DNA of 64,000 nt from an uncultured archaeon (GCA_937138345.1 CAKZOW010000117.1:37572-101571), one strand, 5' to 3'. Counted from the first letter of the stretch, positions 2,495 through 64,000 are shown. Translations and numbers: made by a program. Notes: generated by a model from the letters alone, not told the origin.

Positions 2495-2496
2495 AA

Positions 2497-20850: not shown

Positions 20851-20921
20851 TCTACTCAATATTGGTATAGAGGTGGGTCTGCAAAACCTTCTTAATTCCG
20901 GTTCGATTCCGGAGATTATCT
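20846..20921 (+). tRNA. tRNA-Cys (anticodon GCA)
   Basis: Acceptor GATAGTC/GATTATC (one G-T pair), anticodon stem TGGGT/ACCTT with loop CTGCAAA, T-arm TCCGG-TTCGATT-CCGGA. The D-arm is slightly irregular. Confidence 0.65.
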
Positions 20922-20944
20922 CTATTCTTAATCAAAATTAAATT

Positions 20945-43233: not shown

Positions 43234-43528
43234 AAAAGAATTATTGAACGCTTACTTAGGTACATTACCTTCAGACCAACAGGATACATTTATGAGTAAT
43301 TTCATAACTCTTAATGAAGAGAATAAAGGTTATTTATTACAGACTATTCGTAGTATGACTCCTGGGCATAGAGAAGTGCACCAAGAAGGCGGCTTACATT
43401 TCACAGGAGGTGGGTATAGTAATGTACCTAAGAGTACAGAAGAAGATTTAGATAGGTACTTAGCTACTTTAGATAAAGAACCTAAAAGCATTCAAATTGA
43501 TAAATTTAGAAAATACTTACAAATATGA
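43214..43528 (+). CDS. hypothetical protein
   Basis: 104-aa ORF. Confidence 0.45.
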   Translation: MQQHTSKKELLNAYLGTLPSDQQDTFMSNFITLNEENKGYLLQTIRSMTPGHREVHQEGGLHFTGGGYSNVPKSTEEDLDRYLATLDKEPKSIQIDKFRKYLQI

Positions 43529-45198
43529 AATTTAAAGATTATCCTTTTCTAAATTTCCCTGATGCTATAGCTAATGTAGAAGTAGAGAAAGATGAGACAG
43601 TAATGTTACCTAACGGCACTGTTTACAATATAAAAGGAAAGAAGCATAAAGATGGTGGAGAGAAAGTGTTCCTACCGGATGGTACTAAAGTATTCTCAGA
43701 ACATTTAAAACTTCCAGAGGATATTGCTACTAAACTAGTAGGTAGAAAGACTAAAAAATCTTCACCTGCCCAATTATCTAAGAAATTCAATACTTTGAAA
43801 TACAAAGAGATGATGGAGGATAATACAGGTAAGTGGGATAGATTAGCTGTACAAACTGCTGAGATGATGTTTAACAAGAATATCGCTCACCAAAATGCTA
43901 TATTCGAGACTCAAGAAGATTCTAAGAATAAGAAACAAACTGATATTTTTAAGTATGGAGGCGTGTATAAGTCTAAGACTAAATACCAGAATGGGGGACA
44001 GTATCCTTATAAACTAAATCCTAGTGTTAACGAAGAAGATAATTTAGTTACATTTGACTTTGGTAACCAAAATACAGGATTACAACCTCGTTCAGAGAAT
44101 CCAGACTTATTTGGTAAACAAAGTCAATATAATCCTGCTCACGTAGTTTGGCAGAAATACTACTATGGTGAAGACACTAATGCTATTAATTTTCAACAAA
44201 GACATGGCGAGGCTTATAAACACTTTACTGGTCAAGATTACAGGTATGATAACAAAACTCGTACAGATGGGAAATATGGAAACGTTACTGCCCACGCTCC
44301 TTTATTTAGTACTACTATGCAAGGTACAAAAGAAGGTAAAGTAACTCTTCAACAATACTTAGACAATCCTAGTATAGGCGACAGTTACGGTGTAGATTTG
44401 AGTAAAGCTTTTGATAAAAAGAGTAAAGACCCTTTCTATGAGGTGAATATCTTTGCTGAACCAAAAGCTACTATCGAACCTTTTGATTTTAACGTAACTT
44501 CTTTACAGGGAAAACCTATAAAACCTTTAGCTACGCCAGAATTAAATCTACCTGACTTATTACCTAATCCTCCAGCATCTAATGTACCAGAGAGAAAAGG
44601 TCCTACTCAAGAGGATATGTTATATGGTGTTCAACAAGGAATGTTATTAACTGGATTGGCTAGTTTAGGAAAAGAGAATCCGTATTTTAACCGTACAGAA
44701 CTCAAACCTATTTATAAACGATTCGACCCTATTAATAACCTTGCACAGGAAAGAGCATTTAATTTAATGCGAGAAAATATCGAAAGTTCTAATTTACCTG
44801 AACAAGTTAAACAAGCTCAATTACAGAATATGGGAGCTAAGTTAATGGAAAGTACAGGTCAAGTAGATTTACAGAACTATCAAGGTAAACTACAATTAGA
44901 TAACGATAATAGACAGATTCTACAGAATACTCTTAACCAGAATGTACAGAACCGAGAACTAGGTAATAGACAGTATGCTATGGACAAAGCTAGAGTAGAT
45001 GAATTATATAACCGTCAAAAGATGGGTTATATAAATAATATGTTAGATTTGTGGAGAGGTAGAGTAGAGGAACAAAGTAATGTAAACCTATTAAACCAGA
45101 TGTCTCGTAATTACAATATAGTAAATGGTAAAGGAACTTTTGATGCTGGAAAAGGTACAAATATTGATCCTAATACGATAAGAAACAGTTACCAATGA
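43525..45198 (+). CDS. hypothetical virion protein
   Basis: 557-aa ORF. Confidence 0.55.
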   Translation: MKFKDYPFLNFPDAIANVEVEKDETVMLPNGTVYNIKGKKHKDGGEKVFLPDGTKVFSEHLKLPEDIATKLVGRKTKKSSPAQLSKKFNTLKYKEMMEDNTGKWDRLAVQTAEMMFNKNIAHQNAIFETQEDSKNKKQTDIFKYGGVYKSKTKYQNGGQYPYKLNPSVNEEDNLVTFDFGNQNTGLQPRSENPDLFGKQSQYNPAHVVWQKYYYGEDTNAINFQQRHGEAYKHFTGQDYRYDNKTRTDGKYGNVTAHAPLFSTTMQGTKEGKVTLQQYLDNPSIGDSYGVDLSKAFDKKSKDPFYEVNIFAEPKATIEPFDFNVTSLQGKPIKPLATPELNLPDLLPNPPASNVPERKGPTQEDMLYGVQQGMLLTGLASLGKENPYFNRTELKPIYKRFDPINNLAQERAFNLMRENIESSNLPEQVKQAQLQNMGAKLMESTGQVDLQNYQGKLQLDNDNRQILQNTLNQNVQNRELGNRQYAMDKARVDELYNRQKMGYINNMLDLWRGRVEEQSNVNLLNQMSRNYNIVNGKGTFDAGKGTNIDPNTIRNSYQ

Positions 45199-47948: not shown

Positions 47949-50797
47949 TGGAAGAACAACAACAGTATAGGAATAAAGAGATACTTGATGATGACTATAA
48001 GTTCACAGAAAGAGCTAATAGTTTAGAAGCACAGTTGGATCAATCTATTGCTAAAAATGCAATGTATATCCCTGCTTTCAAGACTTCTCAAGCTATGGCG
48101 AAGCGTTATAACAATCCTAATATTGCATTCAATCCGAATGTTAATATGGAGGAGATTTATGCAAAGAGCGACCCGTTTACATTAGGAGATGCTTTATCTA
48201 AAACTAAAAGATTGTTTACAGAACAAGTAGGACAATCTTGGATGTCTTTAGTAGATGGGGCTTTTACAGCTGTAAATACTGGTGATGTATCTAAGTTATG
48301 GGATAACGAAACTAATTCTAATGTGGCTGATGCGATGGCTGCTGTAGAAGAACTATTTCCGCAATATCAAACACAAGACCAACAGGATAATCCAGGTGCT
48401 TTAAGAAACTGGGGTAATACTTTTAAAACTTTCTTACCGTCTTCTGCTTCTGCCGGAGCTATGATGGCTGATGCAGTATTAACAGAGTTAGTATTTATAG
48501 GTGTAGGTGCTGCAACTGGGTATGGTGTAGGAGCTATTCCAGGAGCCGCTGCCGGACTTGCTAGGATAGCTGCTAGAGCACCTAAATACTTTAAGGATAT
48601 TAGAACTTTATCGAATGCTATTGCAGATGGTATAACTGCTGTAAGAGCTTGGAAAGCTGGTAGGGCAATTAAAAGTACCTTACCTAGCGGTAAAATGGTA
48701 ATGTCTGGTTTCATAGCTGCCAATGGAGAGGCAGGGTTACAGGCTAAAATGGCTTCTTCTGAGTTAATGCAATCCGAGGTTAATAAGTATATGGAGCTAT
48801 ACGGAAAACCTCCTGACCAAGCTACATTCGACCAGATAGAAGCCAATGGTAAAGAACTAGAAAAGAAAGTATGGCAAATGAATGTCCCTGTACTTATGAC
48901 TAGTAATTTAATTCAATTAGGTAATATCTTCAAAGGTACTAAACTTGCTAATGCAGGTATCACTTCATTACAACGTTCTGGAGGTAAATTAGGGTACAAT
49001 GGTTGGAAAGCAGGTAGAAAATATTTATGGAATTTAGGTAAGTCTTCTTTTTCTGAAGGTTTAGAAGAGTATTACCAAGGAGCTTCAACTTCTGCGGCTC
49101 AACAACACTTTTCTATATTTACTAAGGATTCTAAGAGTTATACAGATAGATTCTTTAAAGAGGTTTCTCATAGATGGACTACCCAAGAAGGTCAGATGGA
49201 ATTCGCTGGCGGAGCCGTTATTGGAGGTATGTTTACAGGAGTAGGCTCGCTTTATGGTACTAGGAATGATTACAACCGTTATAAACAATTAGCTAATGTA
49301 TCTAACAGTAGTACCCAAGCTCTTTATCAACAGTATGGTCAGAACGAAGCTCTTACAGACCAGATAGTTAAAGATGTAGAAGAGAATAAAATATCTAAAG
49401 CAACATTTGGAATTAATAAGAATATCTTCAATCTAGCTAAGATGCACAAGAATAACGATACTTGGGCAAGTATGGATTCTAACTTCGATGATATGAAGAG
49501 GATGGAAGTAGCTGAATTCAATGAGGTTTATGATACTAAGTTTACTCAAGCTGAAAAAGACCAAATAGTAGGACAAGTTCAGAAGAAATTCAACATGGCT
49601 TTAGAAGCTTCTGCTGTTACGGACAAGTATTTACAATACAATCCCTTGTTACAAGATCCAAGATTTAAAGAACTATCTAGGAAAGTAAAAGGTGTTGAGA
49701 CACAGAAATCTGATTTACTTTGGGGGAAAATTAAAGATTCTTTTACTGAGATGATTTATAATCAAGAGATGTTTGGGTTAGAAGAAGCTAATGCTGCTTT
49801 CACTATCGATAATGACCCAACTATTTCTAATGATATACAAGGATTGCTTAACTTTCAAGACGGAGATATTGATACTTGGTTAAAAACTAAGTTACAGGAA
49901 GCTGAAGCTATGAGTAAACCAAATGCTACTTTACTTAAAATTAAAGATGCAGGTAGTTACTCTGAGAAACTAGGAATGATTTTAAATGACTACTATAAAC
50001 TGGATGGCGAAGCAAAGGATAAGGTTAATAACTTACTGACAATCAGAGGGATGCTTAAAACAATCGGAGATACTGTAGAAGGATTTAATGATCCAGAACA
50101 ATTGTACCAAAATGCTAAAGAGGTTGCTGATTGGATGGAATACTTAGATGTTAATGGTTTGGATACTGTAGGGCAAGAAGATCAACATGCTCCTACTGAA
50201 CCTATAGAAACTCCTGTGGAAGAAGAGTCAGAACCAGAACAGAAGAGTTACAACGATGTAAGAGATGATATCGACAATGCTTCTGAAATAGGATTGGATA
50301 ATATTAGTGTTGACCATTTACCTTCCAAACAGAAGAAGGCTGCTAAAGAAGCTATTCAAACTAAGAAGGATAATATCAGAGGTGATAAGATTAAAGCTGA
50401 ATATAACGCTAAACCTAAAACTAAAGAGAACTTAGATAAGTTAATAGCAGAAGATGAATTTCCAGGAAAAACAGTTGAAGTAGAAGCTTTTAAACAAAAA
50501 GTACTTAGCAAGACTGTAGATAAGGTACTAGCTAAAATAGCTAAAGCTAAACTAGAAGATTTAGATATTGTACTAGAGTTTGGTCCTCATAATAGAAGAG
50601 TAAAAAAAGCTATACAAGCTCGAAAGAATAAACTAGCTTCTGGACAAACACAAGTAGAACAAGTTCAAGTGAATAGAAAAACAAACATAGAAAAGATTAC
50701 AATGGCTGAACAAGAAGCCGCTTATCAGAAAGGTCAGTCAATGACTCCTGAAGAAGCTCTTGCAGACTTAATGAGAATCCATAAAGAAAATTGCTAA
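47948..50797 (+). CDS. internal virion / ejection protein with Gly/Ala-rich hydrophobic segments (tape-measure- or core-protein-like)
   Basis: 949 aa. Segments such as VFIGVGAATGYGVGAIPGAAAGLARIAARA and MVMSGFIAANGEAGL are membrane-interacting glycine-zipper-like stretches. Confidence 0.45.
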   Translation: MEEQQQYRNKEILDDDYKFTERANSLEAQLDQSIAKNAMYIPAFKTSQAMAKRYNNPNIAFNPNVNMEEIYAKSDPFTLGDALSKTKRLFTEQVGQSWMSLVDGAFTAVNTGDVSKLWDNETNSNVADAMAAVEELFPQYQTQDQQDNPGALRNWGNTFKTFLPSSASAGAMMADAVLTELVFIGVGAATGYGVGAIPGAAAGLARIAARAPKYFKDIRTLSNAIADGITAVRAWKAGRAIKSTLPSGKMVMSGFIAANGEAGLQAKMASSELMQSEVNKYMELYGKPPDQATFDQIEANGKELEKKVWQMNVPVLMTSNLIQLGNIFKGTKLANAGITSLQRSGGKLGYNGWKAGRKYLWNLGKSSFSEGLEEYYQGASTSAAQQHFSIFTKDSKSYTDRFFKEVSHRWTTQEGQMEFAGGAVIGGMFTGVGSLYGTRNDYNRYKQLANVSNSSTQALYQQYGQNEALTDQIVKDVEENKISKATFGINKNIFNLAKMHKNNDTWASMDSNFDDMKRMEVAEFNEVYDTKFTQAEKDQIVGQVQKKFNMALEASAVTDKYLQYNPLLQDPRFKELSRKVKGVETQKSDLLWGKIKDSFTEMIYNQEMFGLEEANAAFTIDNDPTISNDIQGLLNFQDGDIDTWLKTKLQEAEAMSKPNATLLKIKDAGSYSEKLGMILNDYYKLDGEAKDKVNNLLTIRGMLKTIGDTVEGFNDPEQLYQNAKEVADWMEYLDVNGLDTVGQEDQHAPTEPIETPVEEESEPEQKSYNDVRDDIDNASEIGLDNISVDHLPSKQKKAAKEAIQTKKDNIRGDKIKAEYNAKPKTKENLDKLIAEDEFPGKTVEVEAFKQKVLSKTVDKVLAKIAKAKLEDLDIVLEFGPHNRRVKKAIQARKNKLASGQTQVEQVQVNRKTNIEKITMAEQEAAYQKGQSMTPEEALADLMRIHKENC

Positions 50798-53241
50798 TGT
50801 CAAAGATAACATGTACACTAAGTAAATCAGCACAGTTAGGTTTCTTGTCTTACTTGTCGGCTAAATTAAAGGATGTAAAACACTTACAACAACAGGAAGC
50901 TATTAGAGAAATAATGAAACCTTTCGATAATTACGATGAAGGAGATAAGTTCCAGTATTATTCAATACTACACGTTAACTTATCTGCTGTAACTGGCTTC
51001 TATACTAGAGAAAATTTAGGAGAAGTTCAATTGTTTAATAACAATAAACTAGATCCTACTTCTTTAACTAATATCGCTGCAAGTATTTACAGTAAAAAAA
51101 CTCCTGAAGCTATTCATGACGCTATTGAAGCTTTGTATAAGACTCCTGTAGTTGAGGAAAATGTAGGCGACCCTGTTATTAGTGGAGAATTTAATACAGT
51201 GAATTTTGAAGAAAAAAGATTAGATCTTAGAAGTCGTAAGTCTAGTAAAGAAGAAAGATTTGAGTTTATTAAAAAACTACCTGATGGTACTATAATTAAA
51301 GATCCTGAAGATGATTCTATCTATACTATAGTAGAAAATAAACCATTAAAGGATGGTAGAGAGAGTATTACTTTAACTACTTACCTAATAAAAGAAGAAG
51401 GTACGGAAAGAATAGATACTAAAATTTACAATAGAACTAGGAGAGGAGACCTTATTAAAGTGGCTTTCCCTTCAATACTACAAGAAGATAATCTAATCTA
51501 TGAAACTAATGCTGAAGTGGGTAAAACTTTTTCTACGAGTACTATCAAGGATGGTAAAAAAGATGTAGTAAAGAGTAACGATGTATTTAATGAGTCTAAA
51601 CCTCTAGGTTGGTCAGAAACCTACGAAGCTCGTAAGCAACAACATATTAAAGATATTGAAACTAAATTAGGTATCAGAGATACTAAAGGTAGAAAAGAAT
51701 ACAAAGATACTGTAGAAGCTAAAAAAGTTGCAGAGACATTAGCTAAAAAGAATCCTAAATATACATTTATTACAAAGGGTAAAACTATTGTAGCAGATGT
51801 TAAAAAGGTAGATAATAAAGCAGAGATAGGTAAATGGGTTAAACCTGGTGAAGGTACTAAGGAAGTCATGAAAAGAATAGGAGAATCTAAACACAGATTT
51901 GCTCCTTTGGCTAGACGATTATTACCTTTTATTAAAACTTCTGTACCTATAAATGTAGTAGACGCTGTGTTTTTAGGTAGGTTTGATAAAGATAAAATAT
52001 TCATATCTCACTCTGCTGCTAGGACTAAAAAAGGAGATGTTGTTACCACCCTTATACATGAAACACTTCATAGTATCACCAATGATATATTAAAAGGAAA
52101 TAGTAAAGAAGCTAGAGACTTTAAAAAGATTTATGATAATGTACTTAAACACAAAGACAAATTCTCTAATGATTACCCTTTAAAGAATATTAGAGAGTTT
52201 ATGACTGGTATTTTTACAGATGAAACCTTTATGGAGGAGTTGTCTAAGATACCTAGCACCAAGTCTACTAATGCCTGGAAAGATATTAAGAACTGGTTAG
52301 AGAAAGTATTTGGAATTAAAGGTAGTTCTTTATTAGCAGAAGCTATTGAAAGTGGTACTGGAGTTATCGCCTATAAACCTGAAAACGGGTCTACAATTGC
52401 TACAGGTTTAGGAGACTTTGGTGAAGCGATGGGTAATGCTATAAAAGGTAGTGTTGAAAAAGCTGTAGTAAGAGATGTTAAGAAGCATGGTGAAGCAGAG
52501 CGAAGAAAGAGAAATCCTAAAGAAACAGATGCTCAGTGGGCTAAAGCTCAGAAAATTATGGAAGCCTTAGCTAATAAAACAGATTTAAGATATGTTAACC
52601 TAACCAACGAACATTGGATAACTAATAAGTCTGGTGTAGAGGTATTAAATTCTTTAAAGAGTAGTACTGAGATAAAAGCGTTCTTATCGAACAGTCCTGA
52701 TAGTATGGCTTTCTTCTACGATTGGTTTAAACAACACGATAAGTTAAAAGATAAAGAAGCTGACTTAGCAGGATTTATAGGTAAACCTAAAAGTGAAGAG
52801 TTTATAATCAGAGTACATCCTAATACTCCTGTAGAGATCAGAAAACTGTTTGGTAATATAGCTAAGGTTGTAGTAAAAGGAGAAGAGGTTTTAAGTACTA
52901 CAGCACCAGAAGGTCAGATATATCTAATAAAAGGGAAGAGTGGTAACTATTTAATAAAGAGCCTTAAAAAAGACGGGAAAACTTATAAAGCTCTAAAAGT
53001 AATTGAAGGAGATAAAACTACTTATAAGACGGTTAGAATTAAGAACCTAGGTAATCCTGAACTTATTCCTATTACAAGTCAAATGAATTCCGTATCTTTG
53101 AAAGCGATAGGCGTAACTCAGGTAGAAATCCCTACAGGGAAACTAAAAAACATAGACATATTTCTAAACGAGCGTCCATTTGAAAACGGCTCGCTCTACA
53201 GAAAGTTAGAAAGTTCGGGTATAATAAACATTAAATGTTAA
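50791..53241 (+). CDS. virion protein with HExxH zincin-like metallopeptidase motif
   Basis: 816 aa. VVTTLIHETLHSITNDI carries HETLH (the HExxH motif). Confidence 0.45.
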   Translation: MLMSKITCTLSKSAQLGFLSYLSAKLKDVKHLQQQEAIREIMKPFDNYDEGDKFQYYSILHVNLSAVTGFYTRENLGEVQLFNNNKLDPTSLTNIAASIYSKKTPEAIHDAIEALYKTPVVEENVGDPVISGEFNTVNFEEKRLDLRSRKSSKEERFEFIKKLPDGTIIKDPEDDSIYTIVENKPLKDGRESITLTTYLIKEEGTERIDTKIYNRTRRGDLIKVAFPSILQEDNLIYETNAEVGKTFSTSTIKDGKKDVVKSNDVFNESKPLGWSETYEARKQQHIKDIETKLGIRDTKGRKEYKDTVEAKKVAETLAKKNPKYTFITKGKTIVADVKKVDNKAEIGKWVKPGEGTKEVMKRIGESKHRFAPLARRLLPFIKTSVPINVVDAVFLGRFDKDKIFISHSAARTKKGDVVTTLIHETLHSITNDILKGNSKEARDFKKIYDNVLKHKDKFSNDYPLKNIREFMTGIFTDETFMEELSKIPSTKSTNAWKDIKNWLEKVFGIKGSSLLAEAIESGTGVIAYKPENGSTIATGLGDFGEAMGNAIKGSVEKAVVRDVKKHGEAERRKRNPKETDAQWAKAQKIMEALANKTDLRYVNLTNEHWITNKSGVEVLNSLKSSTEIKAFLSNSPDSMAFFYDWFKQHDKLKDKEADLAGFIGKPKSEEFIIRVHPNTPVEIRKLFGNIAKVVVKGEEVLSTTAPEGQIYLIKGKSGNYLIKSLKKDGKTYKALKVIEGDKTTYKTVRIKNLGNPELIPITSQMNSVSLKAIGVTQVEIPTGKLKNIDIFLNERPFENGSLYRKLESSGIINIKC

Positions 53242-53633
53242 AGACTAGAAACTGGTTTCCAGAACATACGGAAATCTATACAACCCAAGGATGGGTAAAT
53301 ATTAGTATAATAGAGAAAAAAGACTTTTCATTAGTAGGATACGAAAGTGAAGAGATTGTTGAATGTAAATTAAAAGAATTTAATAAACATTCCTTTGAAG
53401 GTCCTATCCTTAGTTATAAAGCAAAAGATATATTTTTAGAAGGTCTGTATATAGAGAACTACATAACTAGATACAGAGCCACATTAGACCTACCTAAAAT
53501 AAGGTACTCACATTACAACGGTTATCTGTATAATATAGTCACAACTACAGGAAATTTTATTATCAGAAGCCTGAAAGGAAAACATAACAATAACGATTAT
53601 AATATAGTAAAATGCCAAATAAGTGTAAAATAG
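53235..53633 (+). CDS. hypothetical protein
   Basis: 132-aa ORF overlapping the start of the giant gene. Confidence 0.45.
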   Translation: MLKTRNWFPEHTEIYTTQGWVNISIIEKKDFSLVGYESEEIVECKLKEFNKHSFEGPILSYKAKDIFLEGLYIENYITRYRATLDLPKIRYSHYNGYLYNIVTTTGNFIIRSLKGKHNNNDYNIVKCQISVK

Positions 53634-56600
53634 AGGTTACTCACCCTTTACTTAAACAAGTAATTACTGGAGCAGATACAGTTGAAGAAATACTAACAGC
53701 TTTAAATACTACAGATAAGTTCTTAACTAGAGCTGGAAGGTCTATTAGTAGTAAAGACTTTGAGTTCCTAGTAACAGAAGAACAAGATATTGTAGTCAAT
53801 ATTGGAGGAATAGATGTACCTTTAGTAGAGTTCCAAGAATTCACAGATAAACCTATTCCAGTAATTATTCCTCAGATAATTATTCCAGAGGAAATCAAAC
53901 ACATTGATTCTGATACTACATTAAAGGAAGATAACTTTTCTGCTATTAAATGGGAATCAGGACTTGCTTTAGCTAATAAAGATACCGTAGGTTTTACTAA
54001 TGAGATTAGTCAAGAACAGCGTTCTACATTCAGAGGACAGTTGATGGAGAAGCTAACTACTCGTCCTAAAGCTAAATTGATTTTAATAAAAGATTCTGAT
54101 GCTAATTACTCTCAAACAGAAGAAGAAAGAGGTTTCAAAGCTGATGGTCATGTAGCTATAGTTGTAGAAAACTTTGAAGAAGGATTATCTTTAACTGAAC
54201 TACTAAAGAGAGTTCCTGACTACGCTAAACTCAATGGGAAACCTTTCTTACTCCATACAGAATTCTCTGCTAAGAATAATACTTTTGATGAAACAGGTTT
54301 TGGTAAACGTGACCATGAGAAACGCTTAGACATCTATACTGAGAAAACAGGTAAAACTAGAGAACAAGCTAAAGCGCACTTCGATAAAGAGTTTAGAGAT
54401 TGGAAAAGAGCTGCAACTGAAATAGAAGAAAACTCTTACACCGTCCTTGAGATAAAGTCTATCTCTGAAGGTAATATTGGTAAATACAATAAACACAAAG
54501 CTCCTCTATCTCCAGAGATGGTGAATAGAGTAAGCGAAATTGAGATTGTAGACGGACATGTATTTGTAAATTTTGACGAGACTTTACCTACTAAGGAGAA
54601 GATTAAAACTAAGGTAAGGGTAATTGGTAGTAAAGTAAGTAACCACGAGAAAGGAGTTCTATTCAAATTACTAGATAGTTATACTACCCAGATTCCAGAA
54701 GAGTTTGTAGCTTACTTAGTATTATTGTATGGTAAAAGAGTGTCATTGAAACCTAATAACTTATCATTCAAAAGAAAAGGAGATAAGATTCAAATCAGTT
54801 ATGACCAAGGAGGTAAAATATTCTCTATAAAAACAGACCAGAACTACAAAGATTTAGAACAAAGAAAAGAAATACTCAAGACCATCCTAGAGAACATTCC
54901 AAGAAGTATACCTTTTGATATGGTAATCGCCTCACAGAATGGAGATACTATTGATAGATACTTGTCTGAATTAAAAATCAATGATACAGACTTACGTGTA
55001 CCAGATGTAGATGATTTAGTAAAAGGTACTACTACTCTACAAGATTATTTACTAGATGCTGTATATCCTGTACAAATGGATACGAATCATTATAAGGTAA
55101 ACGGTCAGAAGCAATCCAGTTATAAACCAATCAATAGATATGCTTACTATAACATGGATGGTAAAGTACACAAAGACCTTAGTAGAGAACTAGAAACTAA
55201 AGTAAATGAGAAGTTCGAAGCTAGTGGTATAGATACTGTTATTCTTACTGAAGGTGAGATGCGAGAAAAAGCTGCTGAATGGAATAAGGAAGATGGTACT
55301 AACCATCCTGTTACATATGGGCGGTACAAAAATGGTGTAGTTTATATTACTAAAACAGCACCAAAACACGTAGTATTAGAAGAAAGAATACATGCTCTTA
55401 CAGTAGCAGCTATTAAAGAAGAAGATTTAAATGAAAAAGCTGAGATAGTACAAGTAGTTAACGAACTTAGAACTCGTGTAGCTAAACTAGAAAACGGGGC
55501 TTTAAAAGATAAATGGAATGCGACTATTGGTACTGATGGTAAAGTTACTGTAGAACATGTAGCAGAACTTACTGGTAGAGGTATGTCAGATCCTAATATG
55601 GTAGAGTTCTTAAAGAAAAACCAATTAGGAGATTCATTCTATGCTAAGATTAAAAACTGGATAAATGCTTTAATCTCCAAAGTAACAGGTGTAACTTTCT
55701 ACGATACTATAGAAGGATATACTTATAAGTTAATGGATACTAAGATTGAAGAAGATTTAGATGAAGATATATTTGATCCATTAGGAGGTTTCTTTTCTTA
55801 TGAACAATTAAATGAACCTCCTGTAAAAGATATTCATGACCAGTTGAACTACCATTTCCTAAATATATTCTTGAAAAAGAAAAAGATAACATTATCTGAT
55901 TTATTTGAAAAAGATTTACCTAAAGGTATATTCAAAGAGTATAAAGCTCAGTTAAAGTCAAAAGCTAAGACAAAGTTTTTAGTAAAAGATGAAAAAAGTT
56001 TTGATAAATGGTCTAAAAAATTCTTTGCTAAGGAAGAAGTAGAAGAAGTTTCTGAAATTGAAAGACTAGAATCAGATGATTTGTCTGAAGTAATTAACGA
56101 AACTCACTCGACTAAAAGTTCACAAGAAAGGATTAGCAAGAAGATTAAAGCAATTATAGAAACAATGCCTAAAGTTGATGAGAATGGTAAAGCTGTTCGT
56201 TATCCTTCAGGTATTCCTATGGCTGCTAATATCTCTAGTACTCTTTACAAACTTATCAAGAATTATGGAGGTGTAATCGACATCAACGTACTGGCTAAGA
56301 ATATAGCTAAAGCTGCTTACAAGAAAGATGATAAAAATAGGAATGTAGCCAATCAAGATGATATTTTAATACTAGCACTTGCTTTAGGTATTAAACCGGA
56401 TGGTAGTTATCAGAAGACTCCTTTGATGTACTCTTTTGTAACAGGTATGCAGTTGTTTGAATTACCTGCTTATAAAGCAGTAGAAAGTGATATAGCTTCT
56501 TTTGTATTTAAGGAAAGCGGTACTAACACTAAAGCGCTTAAAAAGGAATGGGATAGTGCTTTTAGAGAGAATAGGTCAGGAAGATTTGATAAAGACTTTA

Positions 56601-59600
56601 ATCCTACAGAAGAATATGTAGCAGCAATTAGACAAGCTGTAGATAACAAAGATAGATATACTCTATTCGAGTTACTTAACATCGAAACAGACGCTAATAC
56701 TACACTTAACTGGCAGTTTATAGAGTCTAGGATATTTGGGTATAGACCTCGTAATATAGTAGGGTTAAAAGGCTTTGATAAAGCATCTAACAACCCATTA
56801 GCTTCTCCTATATCTGATATTTTCAGTTCAGGTGAGAATAAGAACTTACTAAAGGAAGCTGCTGTTTTATCTGGTCATAGAGATACTGTAATGTACTTGA
56901 ATAGTGCAGGTAAAATGCAGAACAACTATAGTTTACCTAACTCTGTCATCATGATGAATAGTATTTTCCAAACCTATACCAGCCTATTAGCTAAGGATGG
57001 TGAAGTCGCCGGACATGAGGAGTTGTTGTATGGTATGCTTAGGAATTTTAATTCTCCTAAGTTTAAGGCTACTGATTTGTATAAGATGTTAACGCATCCT
57101 AATCCAGCAAGAAGGTATAAGATTGAGATTATTAACGTGGATGGCTATACTGATTCAAGAAAAGGTGAAGACATAAAAGATACTACTTCTAAGTTACAGA
57201 ATTTCAGTTGGTTACGTCAACAACACTTAAACTGGAAAGAAGGATTTGTAGAGTTTATGCGTACTGGAACAGGTAGTTCTGCTTGGGGTTACAGAGTAGT
57301 AAGTCCTAAAGGTAAAGCTCATAAATGGGTCACAAATGTTAAAGAAGCTCAGACTATATTTGGTAACTTTCTACTAGGAGAATTAGCTCAGTGGCAAAAA
57401 GTAAAAGATAAGACCAACTACAAATACGACCCGTTTACAATAAGCGCTTATTTAAGCGAAGACTTAAAAACGAAGTTAAAAGAAATGGAATTCGATGGTA
57501 CTCTTGGAGAGTATACAGACGAAGTTTTAGCAGAATTGAATGAAGCTTTATCAGGTGTATTTAGAGATACAGAACAACTCTATGCAGATTACGGGATAAC
57601 TGATTTAGAAAAAGTAGGAATGTTTGGTGTTAATTACAAGATACACCAGATATACTCTACTATGATGTTCTATGGTGATTTAAACTGGTTTGGTAAAAAA
57701 TTCTTTAAGCGTTCGCCACTAGCTGTTTCTACTGGTACAGGTAATACAGTTACAGAAGGATTATATGAAACGATTACACATGATTTAAAATCTGTATTTA
57801 CACCTAATACTAAAGGCTCGCTTACAGCTAAAGTATTAGCAGTAAAAGATATTAAAGCAGATTATAGTCCTAAAAAGTTAAAAGAATTCAAATCTAATGT
57901 AGCTAGTTCTGTTGAGAGTTATTTTAAAAACTCTAATATACCTGATCACTTGAAGAAAGATTTTAAAGATGCTTTAATGGAATCTTTGAACTCTTATAAC
58001 GATATCGAAGTAGCAGATGGTCAGTCTTGGGTATCTTTAGATTTAGCTAAATCTATGTTAGTTACTATAGACAAATGGGAGACTAATGGTTTACAAAAGA
58101 TGTATGACTATGAGGTAGCTTTCCTTAAAATGTGGAAACAAGCTCCTGAGAATCTTAAAGAGAGATACCGTGGTAATAATGATATTAATCTAGAATCAGC
58201 TTTAGCTAAGTTAAAACTAACTGAATCTGATATTAAGTTACTATTGAATAAACCTAAAGGAAACTGGACTTCTATGAAGTGGCAGTACTTCGGACCTATC
58301 AAGTCAAACGCTGATGTAGAGGCTTACAATCCATTAGTGTCACTTAAAACATCATTTGCTCCTATTATACCATCTGCTGTTGTAGGTACTAATGCAGAGC
58401 AGTTTATCGGACTTATGTACAAGGATGGTCATGATATCATTACGATTAAGTCTGCAATGAAAACAGGTATCGCAGAACATGGTGCTGCATCTTTAGCTCC
58501 ATTCTATACAAAGGATGGTATACAACAATTGTCTAATGAAGCTGACAGAGCTTATGAAATATACCTACCATACTTAAAAGAACAGTTAGAAACTAACACG
58601 AAAGTAAAGAAGGTGAATCTACTGGCGTCCCAGTTTAGAAAGTTACTTTATGCAGATACTTTAGTTCCTACTTTCGATGGAGATGCTTTTATAGGAAATC
58701 AATGGTTATCTCCAGATGTTGAAAAGTTATTCAATGAGTTCCTAAACATTCAAGAGCAGATAGTAGAAGTCCAAAAGGTTAAACTACTAGAAGAACTTAA
58801 ACTAGAAAGAATAGGTAAAGAGTATATCATTACTGATAGAACTCACCTAATTAAAACTATAAAAGATGAATTAGAACGCCAAGACAAAGGTGACAAAGGC
58901 CTATATGATTTGCTAGAAGCAATTAATAAAGACGATAATAATTTTGATTATTCCGGTGCCACACAAATGTTGGAGAACTTTGTAGGAGGTTTAATTAAGA
59001 AGAGATTGTCTAATATCAAGCTTCCAGGTAATGCTCTTATTCTTAAAGCATCTCCGACCACAGAAAAACTAGATTCAGAAGGATTTGGATTGAAATATTA
59101 CGGTTATGAGAAAGCTGAAGAATTTGAAGGATTTTGGACAAGAAAAGAGGTAGCTAAAGATACAGAAAAAGTTTATCTATTTGGAGATAATACAGCCGAT
59201 AGAGCAACTAAATATGTTCCTTCAAAAACTCAAGCTGTTATTAGAGGTTTAGATAATGCTATAGGTATAGATACTAAAAAGAATAGAGGTACAGGAAAAG
59301 ATTCTTATTTCACAGATAAAGATTTTGATGAGTTTAAAGACCAAGTAGATAAAGCTATTCAAACTGCTAAAGATAGTGGTAAAACTATTGTTATACCTAA
59401 AGATGGTATTGGTACAGGAAAAGCTATGCTTGCTAAGAAAGCTCCTAAACTTTATAAGTACTTAACAGAAGAGTTAAATAAATTAAAAGAACCTAAAGTA
59501 ACAAAAGCAGAAGGTAAAATATCTATATCTCAAGGAGAGTTCGGAAACTTACTTAAAAGAAAGGATGTAATAGAAAATGCATTATCAAATAGAGAAGATG

Positions 59601-62600
59601 ATTTACTAAGGTCTTTAAATGAGTTAATGGCTCAAGGAAAGATACCAGAGGATTTGATCACTATATTTGGTTATCGTATTCCTACATCTGGACTTAACTT
59701 AATGGATAGTTATATTATCAAAGAATTTTTACCTTATAATGAAGGTTCAGTTATTATTTTACCACCAGAAGCTGTTATTAAAGCAGGTGAGGATTATGAT
59801 ATTGATAAAAAGAACTTCTATTTCCCGTCTATCAGTGCGGATGGTACCAGGTTACCTGTACTTACAGAAAAACAATTTACTAAGAACAAGGAGGAGTTAC
59901 AAGAACGTGAAGAAGCTCTTAGCGAGCGTTATAAAGAGTTAACTAACTCAGTGTTAGAAGTTGAAGGAGAAGGTCTTACAGGTAAGGAAATAGAGCAATT
60001 AAGAGAAGATTTAAGATTTGACAACGAACTAGAAAAACTAGATATAGTTGATGAGTACGCTTTAGTAAAAGAACAGTTAAAAACTTACAAGAATTATTTA
60101 GATTACAGGACTAAAACACTTACAAACAAGTTAATTCAAAATGCTGTAGCAGCTACTTTAGTACCAGAAAGGTTCTTTAGTTTAGTTACTCCGGTTAATA
60201 ATAAACACGTAGAAGATAGTTTAAAAGAATTTGGTCAATCAGTAGAACCTACACCTTGGGAAACTACTAACATTAGTACGTCTGCTTCTAAGAGAGAAGA
60301 TATGGTACTTAACGGTCAAGCATTGACAGGTTTCGTAGCTACAGATGCAGTAGCCTTACAGGTAGTATTAAAGAAAGGATTACGGGTTAATAAGGACTCT
60401 AAACTAGGTAAAACTGTTTACCCATTATTAACAGAAGAAGAAGTTGCCAGAATGGATAGAGGAGATTACTTAGATTTATCTAATCCTCTTATGTTCGATG
60501 GTATGCTTAAATCTGATGTATTTAACCAATATACACAAGCTACAATTGATGCAGCTAATTCTCCATTACTTTCTTCAGTAAATATTACTAAGGACACCAT
60601 ACCTGTAATGAGCTGGTTAACTATGGTAGGAATTCCTGTTAAAAGAATTGGGATGTTTCTAACTCAACCTATCCTTAGAGAACGTCAAAGACTACTAGGA
60701 CAAGGAATGAAGAGTACTGCTGTATATACTAAGCAAGGTAAAGCTTTATTAACTCAAATGGTTAATGAAGGTACATTAAAAAGTACTAAGCAATTCTTTG
60801 GAGGTAAAGACCATAACGGTAACGATATTGGTAAGAAGAGTATCAACTGGGCTAAAGTAGGTGCTTATATTAATAGTGAGAGTAGTACAGGTGACGGTAA
60901 AACTAAATACCCTACGCTTACCAACAAGTCTGCGGCAATTGAAAAAAAGACTGGACGTAAAATCCATTCGAGTGAAGCTCCATTTGAGCAGTTGTATGTA
61001 CTATGGTTATTCCATAAACACCAGAATGAAAGTCTAGAATTCCTACAGTTGAAAATGGCTATGGGAGTGGATACCAATCCTGATAGAAACTCGTTGAGTA
61101 TAGCACTTAGAGAAAAAGCTATTGGAGATATTAACTCTGATAAAAATCCTTTCATTGACAAGACTACTATCAACAAGATTCTTAAAAAATCTGAGGTTTC
61201 TCCGTACTATCAACCAGAAATTACAGATGCTGTACTTAAAGCGTTAAATCCTATACGTTCTAACGCTACGTTTGTGAGTAAATTCTTACAAGAGTTTGGT
61301 GATAGTCGAATGAAATACATGGGTCGTAATAGACGTGAAAAATTTATCCGTACTGCTACCAATGATTTCTTGGATTTCTTAGTGAAAACTAAAGTCTACA
61401 TTGACGGTAAACCATTTAATCAACACTACAACTCTATTAGAAAAGATATTTACTCTAGATTTAGAGCCGTAGCTGGACCAACTTTACTTAGATATACATC
61501 TGTTAAAAAGGATGGTATGATTGCTTTGAATTACGAAGCTGTTGAAGATGGATTTACAGATACTTTAAAATATGAATTGTCTTTAATTAAAGATAGCGAC
61601 CCTGTATTATATAGAGATTTACTAGTTGCTTTCCATGCTCAGTATGGTTATAACTTTACTATTGATACTTTACAAACTATTATCCCTAAACTAGATTTCT
61701 ATAATTTAGTTAAGGAGGACTTAGCAGGTGTAAATGTAGATAATGAGGTTAAATACTTTATAACTGCTTGGAAGAGTGAGAATGAATCCTACATCAAAGG
61801 TAAGAAGAATGTAACCACAAAGTTCTTAAAAGTTAAACGAGGAGCTACTTCTAGTACAGTTAGTAGTAATACTAAACTACGTCAACAAGTAAAACAAGGA
61901 GCTGTTAATATCGACAAAGGTATTTACTCTAATCCTTTCTTAGGAATGGCTGACTCTAAAGTTGCTAAAGATATGTACAAAGATTGGTTAAATGGAAGTA
62001 ATAACCCTGTAGCTGCTTATATCGTATCTGATAATAAACTTGTAAACCAAGAGAGAAATTACTTAGGAGAAGTTGAAATAGATGTCGATGGGCAAATACA
62101 GGAAGTAACTTTTTTCCAGTATGGTAACGCTCGAATTATAGAACTAGAGAATGGACAATTGGTATCAGAAAAATCTAGTAAAATAATAGCAGATTCTTGG
62201 GAACACTTGGAAAACCATGTTCCTTTGACTAGAGAATTAGAAGATGAAGGATTTAAACTAGAAGGAGATTTCAGAACTCTAAACGATATAGAGCCTTCTA
62301 GCAGAGAAAAGTTATTAGAAGAGATTAAATCTGGTAAATTAGATAAAACAGAATTTGTTAGTACAAGTACTGATAACCATGCAAGTATACTAATCGACAA
62401 AATTAAGGATAGAAATAAGGTAGCAGCTACTTCTCTTAAACAAAATGACGATACCAAGACTTATGTAGTTACAGAAGGTAAAGGAGGTAAAGGAGGTAAT
62501 AAGTTAGTAATACCTAAGTTCAATAGTATTCAAGATGTAAAAGACTTTGTAGATACTATTCCAGAGGAGGTTGTATTTCCTACTAGAGGATTAGCAGTTA

Positions 62601-64000
62601 CTAAATCTTATCAGAAAGACTTTAACCAATTGGTAAAAGAGAAATTCAATTATACTAACCCTATTGAGTCAGCTTACTCTTTCACTTACAACGGTACTAC
62701 AGTTCCCACACCTTTTGAGTTGTCTAAAGAACAATCCATAGCATTAGAGGAATTGATAGATCATGTTGAATCTGGTACAGAAGTTGACTGGACTTTGAGT
62801 GCAAAAGGAGGATGTTTAGCTAAAGGTACTAAGGTAGTAATGTTCGATGGTACTTTTAAGAATGTTGAAGATGTAGAAGTAGGTGATTTACTTATGGGTC
62901 CAGATTCTACTCCTAGAACAGTGCTTGATTTAAGAAGAGGTCGAGAGCAAATGTACTGGGTAAGACAAACTAAAGGAGATGATTACAGAGTCAATGAGAG
63001 ACATATTTTATCTTTAAAAAAGGTACATCCTGCTACTTATAGTAGGGTTGTTGCAGGTAAAGGTAAAAGAGTTAAAACAAATAAAGTACTTAAACCTAAA
63101 AGAACAGAAACTTTAAACATTTCTGTGAAGGATTATCTGAATTACCCTACTAGTAAGAAACATATTATGGGTTATATGACAGGAGTAGAGTTCTCTAAAA
63201 AAGAAACTACTATAGATCCTTATTATCTAGGGCTATGGTTGGGAGATGGGTCTACTAAAAATATAAACCAAATATCCAATATTGACAAACCTATATTAGA
63301 TTATTTATTTAGTAAATGGGAACATTATAAGTTTGACGGTAGGTGTACCTATACTTCTACAGGTAATAAGTACAATGAAGAGTTTAAAAAGTTATACAAC
63401 TTAACTAATGCTGGTAAATTAAAAGAAAAGTATATACCTACTAGTTACCTTTATAATACAAGGGAAATACGTTTACAATTACTAGCAGGATTAATAGACA
63501 GTGATGGTCACTTAGCTAATAAAACTTATGAAATAACTCAAAAACATAAAAAATTAGCGCACCAAATAGCTTATCTATGTAGAAGTTTGGGACTTAGAAC
63601 ATACATACGTCCTAAAAAGGTTAAAATTAGAGAAGGAGATGTTAGGGTTTATTGGAGAATTACCTTCAATGGTACTCCAGATGTTCCTACTAAATTACCT
63701 AGGAAACAATGTGATAAATTATCTGTATTCAAAGAACGTAAACATACTAGTGTTAAGTTGGAGAAGGATGTAGTAGATGATTATTACGGGTTCACTTTAG
63801 ATAAGGATCATTTATTCTTACTAGAGGATTTTACAGTAACTCACAACACCGGAAAAACGTCAATAATCGGTGTCTTAGGACAATACCTTAAAAGTGCAGA
63901 GATTCTTTATCTTGCTCCCACCCATGCAGTTACAGTGGAGTTAGCTATAGCGACTTTACCTTTTGGTAATACGAATTTCCCTATAACTATTCCTTCTTCT
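53612..64000 (+). CDS. giant multidomain virion/polyvalent-type protein, at least 3463 codons, 3'-partial. Its C-terminal RecD/Pif1-like SF1 helicase domain is interrupted by an intein
   Basis: I translated it by hand from ATG 53612 (preceded by in-frame TAA at 53600) in one frame without stops to the window end. It is not in the ORF track because no stop lies inside the window. Internal landmarks: a Rossmann-like segment VYLFGDN...GIDT...IVIPKDGIGTGKAML (about 59162-59460); a DUF4326-like segment GAVNIDKGIYSNPFLG...YKDWL (about 61898-61990); the helicase Walker A split as ...LSAKGG / TGKTSIIGVLGQYLKSAEILYLAPTHAVTVEL. Confidence 0.8.
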   Translation, partial: MPNKCKIEVTHPLLKQVITGADTVEEILTALNTTDKFLTRAGRSISSKDFEFLVTEEQDIVVNIGGIDVPLVEFQEFTDKPIPVIIPQIIIPEEIKHIDSDTTLKEDNFSAIKWESGLALANKDTVGFTNEISQEQRSTFRGQLMEKLTTRPKAKLILIKDSDANYSQTEEERGFKADGHVAIVVENFEEGLSLTELLKRVPDYAKLNGKPFLLHTEFSAKNNTFDETGFGKRDHEKRLDIYTEKTGKTREQAKAHFDKEFRDWKRAATEIEENSYTVLEIKSISEGNIGKYNKHKAPLSPEMVNRVSEIEIVDGHVFVNFDETLPTKEKIKTKVRVIGSKVSNHEKGVLFKLLDSYTTQIPEEFVAYLVLLYGKRVSLKPNNLSFKRKGDKIQISYDQGGKIFSIKTDQNYKDLEQRKEILKTILENIPRSIPFDMVIASQNGDTIDRYLSELKINDTDLRVPDVDDLVKGTTTLQDYLLDAVYPVQMDTNHYKVNGQKQSSYKPINRYAYYNMDGKVHKDLSRELETKVNEKFEASGIDTVILTEGEMREKAAEWNKEDGTNHPVTYGRYKNGVVYITKTAPKHVVLEERIHALTVAAIKEEDLNEKAEIVQVVNELRTRVAKLENGALKDKWNATIGTDGKVTVEHVAELTGRGMSDPNMVEFLKKNQLGDSFYAKIKNWINALISKVTGVTFYDTIEGYTYKLMDTKIEEDLDEDIFDPLGGFFSYEQLNEPPVKDIHDQLNYHFLNIFLKKKKITLSDLFEKDLPKGIFKEYKAQLKSKAKTKFLVKDEKSFDKWSKKFFAKEEVEEVSEIERLESDDLSEVINETHSTKSSQERISKKIKAIIETMPKVDENGKAVRYPSGIPMAANISSTLYKLIKNYGGVIDINVLAKNIAKAAYKKDDKNRNVANQDDILILALALGIKPDGSYQKTPLMYSFVTGMQLFELPAYKAVESDIASFVFKESGTNTKALKKEWDSAFRENRSGRFDKDFNPTEEYVAAIRQAVDNKDRYTLFELLNIETDANTTLNWQFIESRIFGYRPRNIVGLKGFDKASNNPLASPISDIFSSGENKNLLKEAAVLSGHRDTVMYLNSAGKMQNNYSLPNSVIMMNSIFQTYTSLLAKDGEVAGHEELLYGMLRNFNSPKFKATDLYKMLTHPNPARRYKIEIINVDGYTDSRKGEDIKDTTSKLQNFSWLRQQHLNWKEGFVEFMRTGTGSSAWGYRVVSPKGKAHKWVTNVKEAQTIFGNFLLGELAQWQKVKDKTNYKYDPFTISAYLSEDLKTKLKEMEFDGTLGEYTDEVLAELNEALSGVFRDTEQLYADYGITDLEKVGMFGVNYKIHQIYSTMMFYGDLNWFGKKFFKRSPLAVSTGTGNTVTEGLYETITHDLKSVFTPNTKGSLTAKVLAVKDIKADYSPKKLKEFKSNVASSVESYFKNSNIPDHLKKDFKDALMESLNSYNDIEVADGQSWVSLDLAKSMLVTIDKWETNGLQKMYDYEVAFLKMWKQAPENLKERYRGNNDINLESALAKLKLTESDIKLLLNKPKGNWTSMKWQYFGPIKSNADVEAYNPLVSLKTSFAPIIPSAVVGTNAEQFIGLMYKDGHDIITIKSAMKTGIAEHGAASLAPFYTKDGIQQLSNEADRAYEIYLPYLKEQLETNTKVKKVNLLASQFRKLLYADTLVPTFDGDAFIGNQWLSPDVEKLFNEFLNIQEQIVEVQKVKLLEELKLERIGKEYIITDRTHLIKTIKDELERQDKGDKGLYDLLEAINKDDNNFDYSGATQMLENFVGGLIKKRLSNIKLPGNALILKASPTTEKLDSEGFGLKYYGYEKAEEFEGFWTRKEVAKDTEKVYLFGDNTADRATKYVPSKTQAVIRGLDNAIGIDTKKNRGTGKDSYFTDKDFDEFKDQVDKAIQTAKDSGKTIVIPKDGIGTGKAMLAKKAPKLYKYLTEELNKLKEPKVTKAEGKISISQGEFGNLLKRKDVIENALSNREDDLLRSLNELMAQGKIPEDLITIFGYRIPTSGLNLMDSYIIKEFLPYNEGSVIILPPEAVIKAGEDYDIDKKNFYFPSISADGTRLPVLTEKQFTKNKEELQEREEALSERYKELTNSVLEVEGEGLTGKEIEQLREDLRFDNELEKLDIVDEYALVKEQLKTYKNYLDYRTKTLTNKLIQNAVAATLVPERFFSLVTPVNNKHVEDSLKEFGQSVEPTPWETTNISTSASKREDMVLNGQALTGFVATDAVALQVVLKKGLRVNKDSKLGKTVYPLLTEEEVARMDRGDYLDLSNPLMFDGMLKSDVFNQYTQATIDAANSPLLSSVNITKDTIPVMSWLTMVGIPVKRIGMFLTQPILRERQRLLGQGMKSTAVYTKQGKALLTQMVNEGTLKSTKQFFGGKDHNGNDIGKKSINWAKVGAYINSESSTGDGKTKYPTLTNKSAAIEKKTGRKIHSSEAPFEQLYVLWLFHKHQNESLEFLQLKMAMGVDTNPDRNSLSIALREKAIGDINSDKNPFIDKTTINKILKKSEVSPYYQPEITDAVLKALNPIRSNATFVSKFLQEFGDSRMKYMGRNRREKFIRTATNDFLDFLVKTKVYIDGKPFNQHYNSIRKDIYSRFRAVAGPTLLRYTSVKKDGMIALNYEAVEDGFTDTLKYELSLIKDSDPVLYRDLLVAFHAQYGYNFTIDTLQTIIPKLDFYNLVKEDLAGVNVDNEVKYFITAWKSENESYIKGKKNVTTKFLKVKRGATSSTVSSNTKLRQQVKQGAVNIDKGIYSNPFLGMADSKVAKDMYKDWLNGSNNPVAAYIVSDNKLVNQERNYLGEVEIDVDGQIQEVTFFQYGNARIIELENGQLVSEKSSKIIADSWEHLENHVPLTRELEDEGFKLEGDFRTLNDIEPSSREKLLEEIKSGKLDKTEFVSTSTDNHASILIDKIKDRNKVAATSLKQNDDTKTYVVTEGKGGKGGNKLVIPKFNSIQDVKDFVDTIPEEVVFPTRGLAVTKSYQKDFNQLVKEKFNYTNPIESAYSFTYNGTTVPTPFELSKEQSIALEELIDHVESGTEVDWTLSAKGGCLAKGTKVVMFDGTFKNVEDVEVGDLLMGPDSTPRTVLDLRRGREQMYWVRQTKGDDYRVNERHILSLKKVHPATYSRVVAGKGKRVKTNKVLKPKRTETLNISVKDYLNYPTSKKHIMGYMTGVEFSKKETTIDPYYLGLWLGDGSTKNINQISNIDKPILDYLFSKWEHYKFDGRCTYTSTGNKYNEEFKKLYNLTNAGKLKEKYIPTSYLYNTREIRLQLLAGLIDSDGHLANKTYEITQKHKKLAHQIAYLCRSLGLRTYIRPKKVKIREGDVRVYWRITFNGTPDVPTKLPRKQCDKLSVFKERKHTSVKLEKDVVDDYYGFTLDKDHLFLLEDFTVTHNTGKTSIIGVLGQYLKSAEILYLAPTHAVTVELAIATLPFGNTNFPITIPSS
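62813..63847 (+). mobile_element. intein (345 aa) with a two-motif LAGLIDADG homing endonuclease, inserted in the P-loop of the giant protein's helicase domain
   Basis: N-terminal splice block CLAKGTKVVMFDGTFKNVEDVEVGDLLMG; block B-like YRVNERHILSL; LAGLIDADG motifs YYLGLWLGDGS and LLAGLIDSDGHL; C-terminal block FLLEDFTVTHN followed by Thr at +1. The flanking exteins rejoin to GGTGKTS (Walker A). Confidence 0.85.

Follow-up and report, generated by a model that had tools for sequence, protein, structure and literature searches.

Giant RNA polymerase (RNAP) genes, with products of up to ~6000 amino acids (aa), are a hallmark of the Crassvirales (PMC10136315; PMC7886860). The closest described enzyme to the one discussed here is gp66 of Cellulophaga phage phi14:2. 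For gp66, the barrels, the bridge helix, the trigger loop and the Connector (1095-1238) have been defined, and it was shown that the enzyme efficiently transcribes single-stranded or denatured DNA, but, in vitro, not double-stranded DNA (doi 10.1101/2020.03.07.982082). The annotations of gp66, gp67 and gp65 are based on virion mass spectrometry. Here, we describe a related protein from a 64,000-nucleotide stretch of DNA of an uncultured archaeon (GCA_937138345.1, CAKZOW010000117.1:37572-101571), hereafter called the window. A stop-free open reading frame (ORF) at 53612-64000 (plus strand) holds the first 3463 of the 4124 codons of this protein, designated P0001. The ORF is highly likely to encode a virion-packaged two-barrel DNA-dependent RNAP of a distant crAss-like phage, homologous to gp66. 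As giant RNAP genes mark this group, a giant ORF as such is expected. P0001 is a crAss-type virion RNAP (vRNAP) variant that carries a Dda-like helicase, an intein and an insertion of the domain DUF7831.

The identity of P0001 as an RNAP is established by homology and fold. Its two-barrel core spans aa 1335-2400 (57614-60811, plus strand) and is homologous to gp66 aa ~836-1670, with an identity of ~21-24%. In a tblastn search against phage genomes, aa 2009-2077 match 'putative RNA polymerase' genes of gut crassviruses, while megablast of the giant ORF against phage genomes gives no match. The original prediction for this locus, a model's reading of the DNA, had proposed a comparison with the crAss-like vRNAPs, and this comparison reveals homology to both gp66 and the RNAP of cr85_1. 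With the cr85_1 enzyme, BLASTP returns three collinear blocks (best E-value (E) 8e-12), in which GEDYDIDK is aligned to GSDFDVDK. With gp66, aa 2012-2357 are aligned to 1313-1656 (E 2e-12). A profile was also built from P0001 and two uncharacterised relatives, thus containing no known crAss sequence. Its sole match in the PDB is 6VR4 (gp66), with E 1.5e-21 in four collinear segments. Finally, hhalign against an alignment of gp66, cr85 and cr128 yields a probability of 100% and E 6.4e-70 over 786 columns. The aligned part of gp66 takes in the Connector and the double-psi beta-barrels on either side of it, together with the bridge-helix and trigger-loop region, and in P0001 the corresponding regions likewise lie in one chain.

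The predicted Mg2+-binding catalytic motif is DYDID (aa 2061-2065; 59792-59806, plus strand). It is aligned to the catalytic 1361-DFDID-1365 of gp66 and is found in the second double-psi beta-barrel. The surrounding G-x-D-x-D-x-D-K is invariant in the family, as is YRIPTSG further upstream (59672-59692). The original prediction had reported that no RNAP motif was present. However, GEDYDIDK (about aa 2058-2065) is the crAss-type DxDxD, which was overlooked because DxDGD was sought instead. The TFDGD at aa 1687-1691 is not conserved: P0002, the closest orthologue (61% identity), has TYDNK there. The same prediction had named double-psi beta-barrel motifs as the observation that would reclassify the protein as a vRNAP, and with the DxDxD and the two-barrel core precisely this observation has been made.

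P0001 belongs to a large family. An exhaustive HMMER scan yielded 3294 cluster representatives, of which 1133 have E <= 1e-30. Most of the top 150 measure 3200-4500 aa. At least 326 relatives are present in IMG/VR. GSD[FY]D[IV]DK occurs in all of the 80 that were fetched (80/80), and their ORFs have a median of about 3700 codons. The IMG/VR counts given below refer to these 80 relatives, and the domain survey of the family to 153 proteins. As a side observation, the RNAP of the gut phage cr108_1 (L007, 1-8849) is apparently split over two annotated genes. The break falls right in the catalytic motif (...AGSD / LYDIDK...), and ~290 nucleotides separate the two parts. Such a split is consistent with the gene fragmentation reported for some crassviruses.

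By analogy with gp66, and in view of the terminal cysteines that the two proteins have in common (see below), P0001 is very probably packaged in the capsid and ejected into the host together with the DNA. From its family, Mg2+-dependent DNA-templated RNA synthesis is predicted, and the early genes would be transcribed at the DYDID Mg2+ site between the two double-psi beta-barrels. The original prediction had weighed a vRNAP against a polyvalent anti-defence protein without RNAP activity, and had favoured the latter as no DxDGD was seen. In its favour, P0001 is giant and multidomain, and is encoded at the end of the virion block. Nevertheless, this explanation is very unlikely, given that the two-barrel core and the invariant motif are present, that all three catalytic aspartates are kept, and that no DarB-like methyltransferase or SF2 helicase was detected.

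The extent of the ORF is well defined. In frame +1, 0 stops are found in the 3463 codons between 53612 and 64000, versus 140-515 stops in each of the remaining five frames. The log10 probability of such a stop-free frame, computed from the base composition, is about -130. The single uninterrupted plus-strand ORF of at least 3463 codons is thereby confirmed. It had also been stated that only short antisense ORFs are listed for this region, and indeed the ORF listing of the window gives three short ones there. The giant ORF is missing from the list because it runs past the window edge, and ORFs running off the edge are not listed. An extension beyond 64000 had been called for, and the identical full-length protein of 4124 aa was recovered from 4-5 public contigs, the largest of 127,896 bp (ENA ERZ928327). 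Its stop would fall at the equivalent of window position 65,986. The start (MPNKC...) is kept in P0002, and the next gene downstream is an ORF of 1649 aa (L002:22375-27324).

It could be argued that an assembly or frame artefact has joined separate genes, namely an RNAP, a helicase and an intein-bearing gene. The assembly is metagenomic, and crAss-like RNAP genes are known to be split differently among phages (PMC7886860). However, the contigs with the identical protein come from several sources, and P0002, which derives from a separate sample, shows the same architecture minus the intein. In addition, the helicase is in frame with the RNAP in four IMG/VR relatives and in five further representatives, and the conserved C-terminal Cys tail is located after the helicase. 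An artefact is therefore extremely improbable.

The genomic context points to the same group of phages. The terminase, portal and capsid genes of the window match crAss-type PHROGs, and the terminase and portal also match their phi14:2 counterparts. The best matches of the large terminase (TerL) are all Crassvirales, at 24-29% identity. The gene order TerL-portal-X-major capsid protein ... giant proteins-RNAP-'RNAP subunit' is that of phi14:2 and cr85_1. Downstream, the 1649-aa ORF shows homology to the 'RNAP subunit' of cr85_1 and cr128_1. Upstream, a gp67-like ORF of 949 aa (47948-50797, plus strand) is homologous to the N-terminal part of those long RNAP ORFs that are fusions (E 8e-13). Based on the crAss-like terminase, portal, capsid and gene order, the window therefore belongs to a distant crAss-like phage. 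The gene for P0001 is located at the end of the virion module, beside giant genes of the 'RNAP-associated' type. That this module closes with a giant protein of several domains had been correctly stated in the original prediction.

C-terminal to the RNAP core, P0001 contains a Dda-like superfamily 1B (SF1B) helicase. With the intein removed, aa ~3020-3900 show all SF1 motifs: AKGGTGKT, VVDEASM, GDYEQFAPIG, FRQGEG, ITSIKSQGST and ASRAKN. The Walker A, Walker B (DEAS), III (GDxxQ), IV (R), V (QGS[TE]) and VI (SR) motifs that define the Dda/RecD/Pif1 type thus occur in order. The helicase profile gives full-length matches to the Dda-like enzymes 9KWF (3.8e-41), 8JX6 (2.4e-39) and T4 Dda (1.9e-28), followed by RecD and Pif1. 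In Pfam, AAA_30 is matched from aa 3413 (E 1.4e-13), and AAA_19 and PIF1 are matched as well. The N-extein part of the helicase starts at 62669 and ends at 62812 (plus strand), where Walker A breaks off after its first half (...SAKGG). The second half (TGKTS) opens the C-extein with Thr+1 (63848-64000, plus strand). Past the window edge, the helicase extends to about aa 3900, and a tail of 220 aa then completes the protein, ending in ...KSCG. Together with the intein described below, these matches uphold the earlier assignment of an intein-bearing SF1 RecD/Pif1-like helicase. In IMG/VR, the helicase is fused in frame to the RNAP in 4/80 relatives (L012, L017, L060, L074), and so it is in five more of the 153 representatives (P0005, P0064, P0071, P0079, P0116). 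No description of an RNAP-helicase fusion in crAss-like phages was found in the literature searched.

The intein occupies aa 3068-3412 (62813-63847, plus strand). It starts with Cys1 (C3068), ends with the C-terminal His-Asn (HN3412) and is followed by a Thr (T3413). It contains a Hint domain as well as a homing endonuclease of the LAGLIDADG type, whose two motifs read LGLWLGDGS and LAGLIDSDG. This is in line with the Pfam matches (Hom_end_hint at 4e-22, Hom_end and LAGLIDADG_3) and with matches to the PI-SceI and Prp8 inteins in the PDB. Apart from block B, which reads NERH and not TxxH, all features of a LAGLIDADG intein are found: the Cys, the His-Asn, the +1 nucleophile and a site inside a conserved motif. 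Judged by these features, the intein is apparently intact and splicing-competent. The insertion splits the helicase Walker A (AKGG|TGKTS), which is uninterrupted in P0002 (AKGGAGKTS), and the intein would have to splice out of the Walker A loop to give an active ATPase. Among the 153 surveyed proteins, the intein is found in P0001 only.

The fused helicase may supply the single-stranded template to the RNAP, although we would put this at somewhat less than an even chance. The proposal is made because gp66 cannot use double-stranded DNA, because the structurally related QDE-1 requires the helicase QDE-3 and RPA (doi 10.1101/2020.03.07.982082), and because the directions of travel agree. The 5'-3' polarity of the P0001 helicase is taken from its SF1B family. 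With this polarity, it would translocate along the non-template strand and thus share the direction of travel of a polymerase that reads the template 3'-5'. In this way, it would open the ejected duplex and supply the RNAP with template, or else strip the RNA:DNA hybrid. Alternative roles are the release of the RNA:DNA hybrid, the drawing of the genome into the cell and the displacement of host proteins. Template access in vivo is unexplained for gp66-type enzymes, so that a natural RNAP-helicase fusion offers a concrete candidate answer as well as an experimental handle.

DUF7831 (aa 1837-1953; 59120-59470, plus strand; Pfam E 6e-29) is inserted in the RNAP core itself. It lies opposite gaps in gp66 and P0004, at the junction of the Connector and the second barrel, where gp66 has about 30-55 residues (gp66 ~1249-1276). 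Its AlphaFold2 (AF2) model shows a three-layer alpha/beta/alpha fold with a predicted local distance difference test score (pLDDT) of 91. The GIGTG segment (aa 1932-1936) falls within this domain. A Rossmann-like G-I-G-T-G segment and a DUF4326/NADAR-like segment had originally been read as two modules. These collapse into one single Pfam domain, and the DUF4326/NADAR label finds no support in any search. The labels given by annotators of cr130_1 and IAS virus, SLOG/cpYpsA or DprA-like, were likewise rejected, as hhalign against cpYpsA gives a probability of 0.1%. For triosephosphate isomerase (TIM), a chance IGTGK motif is all that is shared (E > 0.1). Sequence-level tests of a macro, SLOG or TIM relationship are all negative, and a relaxed Pfam scan of 36 DUF7831 members returns nothing consistent.

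In the survey, DUF7831 is present in about 14/153 representatives, at N-terminal, internal or C-terminal positions. The copy in P0003, a cr85-type RNAP, is 69% identical to that of P0001, while the two RNAP cores are <30% identical. The module therefore moves between RNAPs. DUF7831 also exists as a stand-alone protein of ~130 aa in many phages and in giant viruses. These stand-alone genes sit among replication and methylase genes, a setting that is uninformative for function. At the site of the P0001 insertion, P0002 (L008) carries a larger insert of ~340 aa (aa 1805-2145) with a divergent, interrupted DUF7831, and in P0038 the domain is apparently located at about the same site as in P0001. 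The junction appears to tolerate repeated remodelling. As for P0003 (L009:756-11780), it has a 1365-aa N-terminal extension with DUF7831 and DUF1848. It is not obtained with the standard translation table, and the next ORF of L009 is interrupted by 29 in-frame stops, so that an alternative genetic code seems to be in use.

Several points weigh against P0001 being an active packaged RNAP with a helicase partner. The phage is uncultured, and the AF2 model of the core is of moderate confidence (pLDDT 70). In principle, activity could suffer from the large insertion beside the catalytic barrel. No domain could be assigned to about 2000 residues, namely aa 1-1334 (a zincin remnant aside), 2400-3020 and 3900-4124. 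In line with this, no credible Pfam match is found for aa 1-640, 641-1335, 2401-3040 and 3801-4124, even at E up to 1. As for the helicase, about 5% of the relatives carry it and ~95% do not, so that it is not required for RNAP function. Moreover, no separate Dda-like gene is found within 10 kb of the RNAP in the fusion-free relatives examined, nor elsewhere in the window. Hence, a role of the helicase receives no Rosetta-stone support.

A further feature of P0001 concerns its cysteines. These are located at positions 5, 3068, 3245, 3323, 3367 and 4123. The middle four lie in the intein, leaving the mature protein with C5 (53624-53626, plus strand) and C4123 only. The neighboring cargo genes follow the same pattern. 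The 949-aa gp67-like protein has its sole Cys as the last residue, and the next protein (816 aa; 50791-53241, plus strand) has exactly two, namely its final residue and a second one close to the N-terminus (MSKITC). In the downstream 1649-aa protein, the sole Cys is at position 3, and no Cys occurs in the four ORFs preceding the 949-aa ORF (42109-47948). Two other proteins of the virion module are Cys-rich, unlike the Cys-free cargo type: 30987-33239 (19 Cys in 750 aa) and 37374-42125 (27 Cys in 1583 aa). Tail components that bind metal or are stabilised by disulfides are a possible explanation for these two.

The pattern was followed in the loci of phi14:2 (L003, L004, L097), cr85_1 (L001, L098) and IMG/VR (L012-L091). 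In phi14:2, the cysteines of gp66 are found only at its two termini (C3 and C2179), and those facing them in the neighbors would be C1797 of gp67 and C3 of gp65. In the gut phage cr85_1, a single Cys is found at 2515 of the 2518-aa subunit, which is encoded on the opposite strand, and at 5 of the 1351-aa subunit, while the RNAP contains C3 and the terminal C2401. An N-terminal Cys is present in 127/136 family representatives. In IMG/VR, a C-terminal Cys is found in 69/72 RNAPs, and an N-terminal Cys in 60/60 downstream proteins, where it is usually the sole one in about 1700 residues. Overall, the Cys frequency of the RNAPs is 0.00047 versus 0.0044 for other ORFs of the same IMG/VR loci, a ~ten-fold depletion.

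The terminal cysteines also depend on how the genes are arranged. Where the RNAP ORF has an N-terminal Cys, it never contains a gp67-like N-terminal region (0/21), and the upstream ORF ends in Cys in 13/17 cases. Where the N-terminal Cys is missing, 32/35 RNAP ORFs are fused to the gp67-like region and the upstream ORF is Cys-free (28/28). For these two comparisons of split and fused genes, the Fisher p values are 1.5e-12 and 3e-8. The pair of terminal cysteines thus appears exactly where the peptide bond between the cargo proteins is missing. That the junction Cys is present when the proteins are split and absent when they are fused suggests a head-to-tail disulfide between the cargo proteins. 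Such a link is the simplest reading of the sequence pattern, and other partners for the terminal cysteines are possible. In the window, the chain would run from the 949-aa protein via the 816-aa protein and the 4124-aa RNAP to the 1649-aa protein; in phi14:2 it would be gp67-gp66-gp65.

The crAss001 structure paper describes disulfides elsewhere in the virion and proposes that partly unfolded cargo is ejected from N to C. The terminal cysteines are mentioned neither in that paper nor in the gp66 paper, and a text search of the literature also found no description of them. We tentatively propose, with more doubt than confidence, that the disulfide-joined cargo leaves the capsid as one partly unfolded thread and is set free by reduction in the cytoplasm. 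Here, the thread would also deliver the Dda-like helicase, which would let the RNAP, dependent on single-stranded DNA, use the incoming duplex. If the disulfides are real, they would explain how several proteins of 100-450 kDa are ordered and pulled through a narrow tail. For annotators, the terminal-Cys rule would provide a sequence signature of the ejected cargo proteins and of their order.

In the N-terminal part of the family, ~1450 aa upstream of the DxDxD, a zincin-like domain (YHEAWH...EE..AEDFR) is found in 50/80 IMG/VR loci and in at least 90% of the aligned representatives. In P0001, a degenerate version remains at aa 565-692 (55304-55687, plus strand). Its first His is lost (LEERIH) and the domain match is weak (E 0.004), while its distance from the DxDxD agrees with that in the family. 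The zincin-like domain of the relatives parallels the peptidase that is fused to N4-type vRNAPs. The place of the helicase is taken in other relatives by a circularly permuted YpsA (cpYpsA; SLOG) domain or by a 2-oxoglutarate (2OG)-Fe(II) oxygenase (L021:12635-15613, L068:11066-14962). Across the relatives, a common RNAP chassis is thus equipped with variable accessory modules: helicase, DUF7831, cpYpsA, 2OG-Fe(II) oxygenase and zincin-like.

This variability bears on a further explanation, in which P0001 is indeed a vRNAP, with the helicase and DUF7831 as ejected host-directed effectors and not as aids to transcription. P0001 would then be a true polyvalent protein in the sense of Iyer and Aravind. 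The modules might clear the incoming DNA of host proteins or defence complexes, or they might undo a modification of DNA or protein. Such a role would fit the interchangeable modules on the RNAP chassis (the cpYpsA SLOG, the oxygenase, the zincin-like domain and DUF7831 at its varied positions), as well as the module exchange indicated by the DUF7831 copies of P0001 and P0003. Besides, the vRNAP of N4 was classed as polyvalent by Iyer et al. 2017 (PMC5512222). However, Pfam, NCBIfam and PHROGs reveal no recognised host-directed or anti-defence domain (ART, MPTase, anti-restriction, nuclease and the like) in P0001, and Dda-like helicases have ordinary roles in DNA metabolism. We consider effector functions rather unlikely. 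Of the original polyvalent anti-defence reading, the multidomain architecture with variable modules stands: the RNAP core, DUF7831, the SF1B helicase and the zincin remnant are several unrelated domains in one protein of the virion block. The very probable ejection stands as well, but the non-RNAP identity does not.

Elsewhere in the window, a cluster of tRNA genes for Thr(tgt), Met(cat), Asp(gtc) and Cys(gca) is located at 19452-20922 (plus strand) and 5555-5627 (minus strand). One more call, tRNA-Cys(aca), is odd in that its anticodon lies at position 32, and is possibly a false positive.

When P0001 as a crAss-type vRNAP is compared with known systems, several giant or ejected proteins turn out to be analogues. 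P1 DarB, a methyltransferase with an SF2 helicase, is likewise a large packaged and ejected protein. The original comparison with DarB does not extend to kinship, as no methyltransferase or SF2 domain was found and the helicase of P0001 is of the SF1B type. In the Thermus phage P23-45, gp96 is a virion RNAP fused to the tape measure of a long-tailed siphovirus, so that both the fusion partner and the phage type differ from those of P0001. N4 gp50 (~3500 aa) is also a giant packaged and ejected RNAP with accessory domains, including a zincin-like peptidase (PMC5512222), and it likewise prefers a single-stranded template. Unlike P0001, it is a T7-like single-subunit polymerase of unrelated fold, and no search returned a match to an N4-type T7-like palm/fingers/thumb domain in P0001.

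For the helicase, T4 Dda and the Dda-like enzymes (3UPU, 8JX6, 9KWF) are the relevant models, as shown by the full-length profile match and the complete set of SF1 motifs. Unlike T4 Dda, the helicase of P0001 is embedded in a 4124-aa protein and its Walker A is interrupted by an intein. Compared to the fused helicases from IMG/VR, its domain 2 contains an insertion of ~100 aa. In Neurospora, the helicase that serves QDE-1 is a separate, RecQ-type protein (QDE-3), whereas in P0001 a Dda-like SF1B helicase is covalently fused.

The true relatives are found in the Crassvirales. Their giant RNAP ORFs and 'transcription block' proteins (gp47, gp49 and gp50 of crAss001; the fused RNAP subunit of crAssphage, up to ~6000 aa) are giant multidomain virion proteins with a DxDxD as well (PMC10136315; PMC7886860). 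Neither a fused helicase nor an inserted DUF7831 was found described in the papers searched on the Crassvirales, including these two, and the TerL of the window, at 24-29% identity to any classified crassvirus, sets this phage apart from them. Like phi14:2 gp66 (PDB 6VR4), P0001 combines both double-psi beta-barrels in a single chain and has a D[FY]DID and cysteines confined to the termini. Its gene position, after the tail and cargo genes and before the 'RNAP-associated' gene, is also shared. At 4124 aa, P0001 is about twice as long as gp66 (2180 aa). Unlike gp66, it contains the DUF7831 insertion, the C-terminal Dda-like helicase with its intein and about 500 extra N-terminal residues with the degenerate zincin-like remnant.

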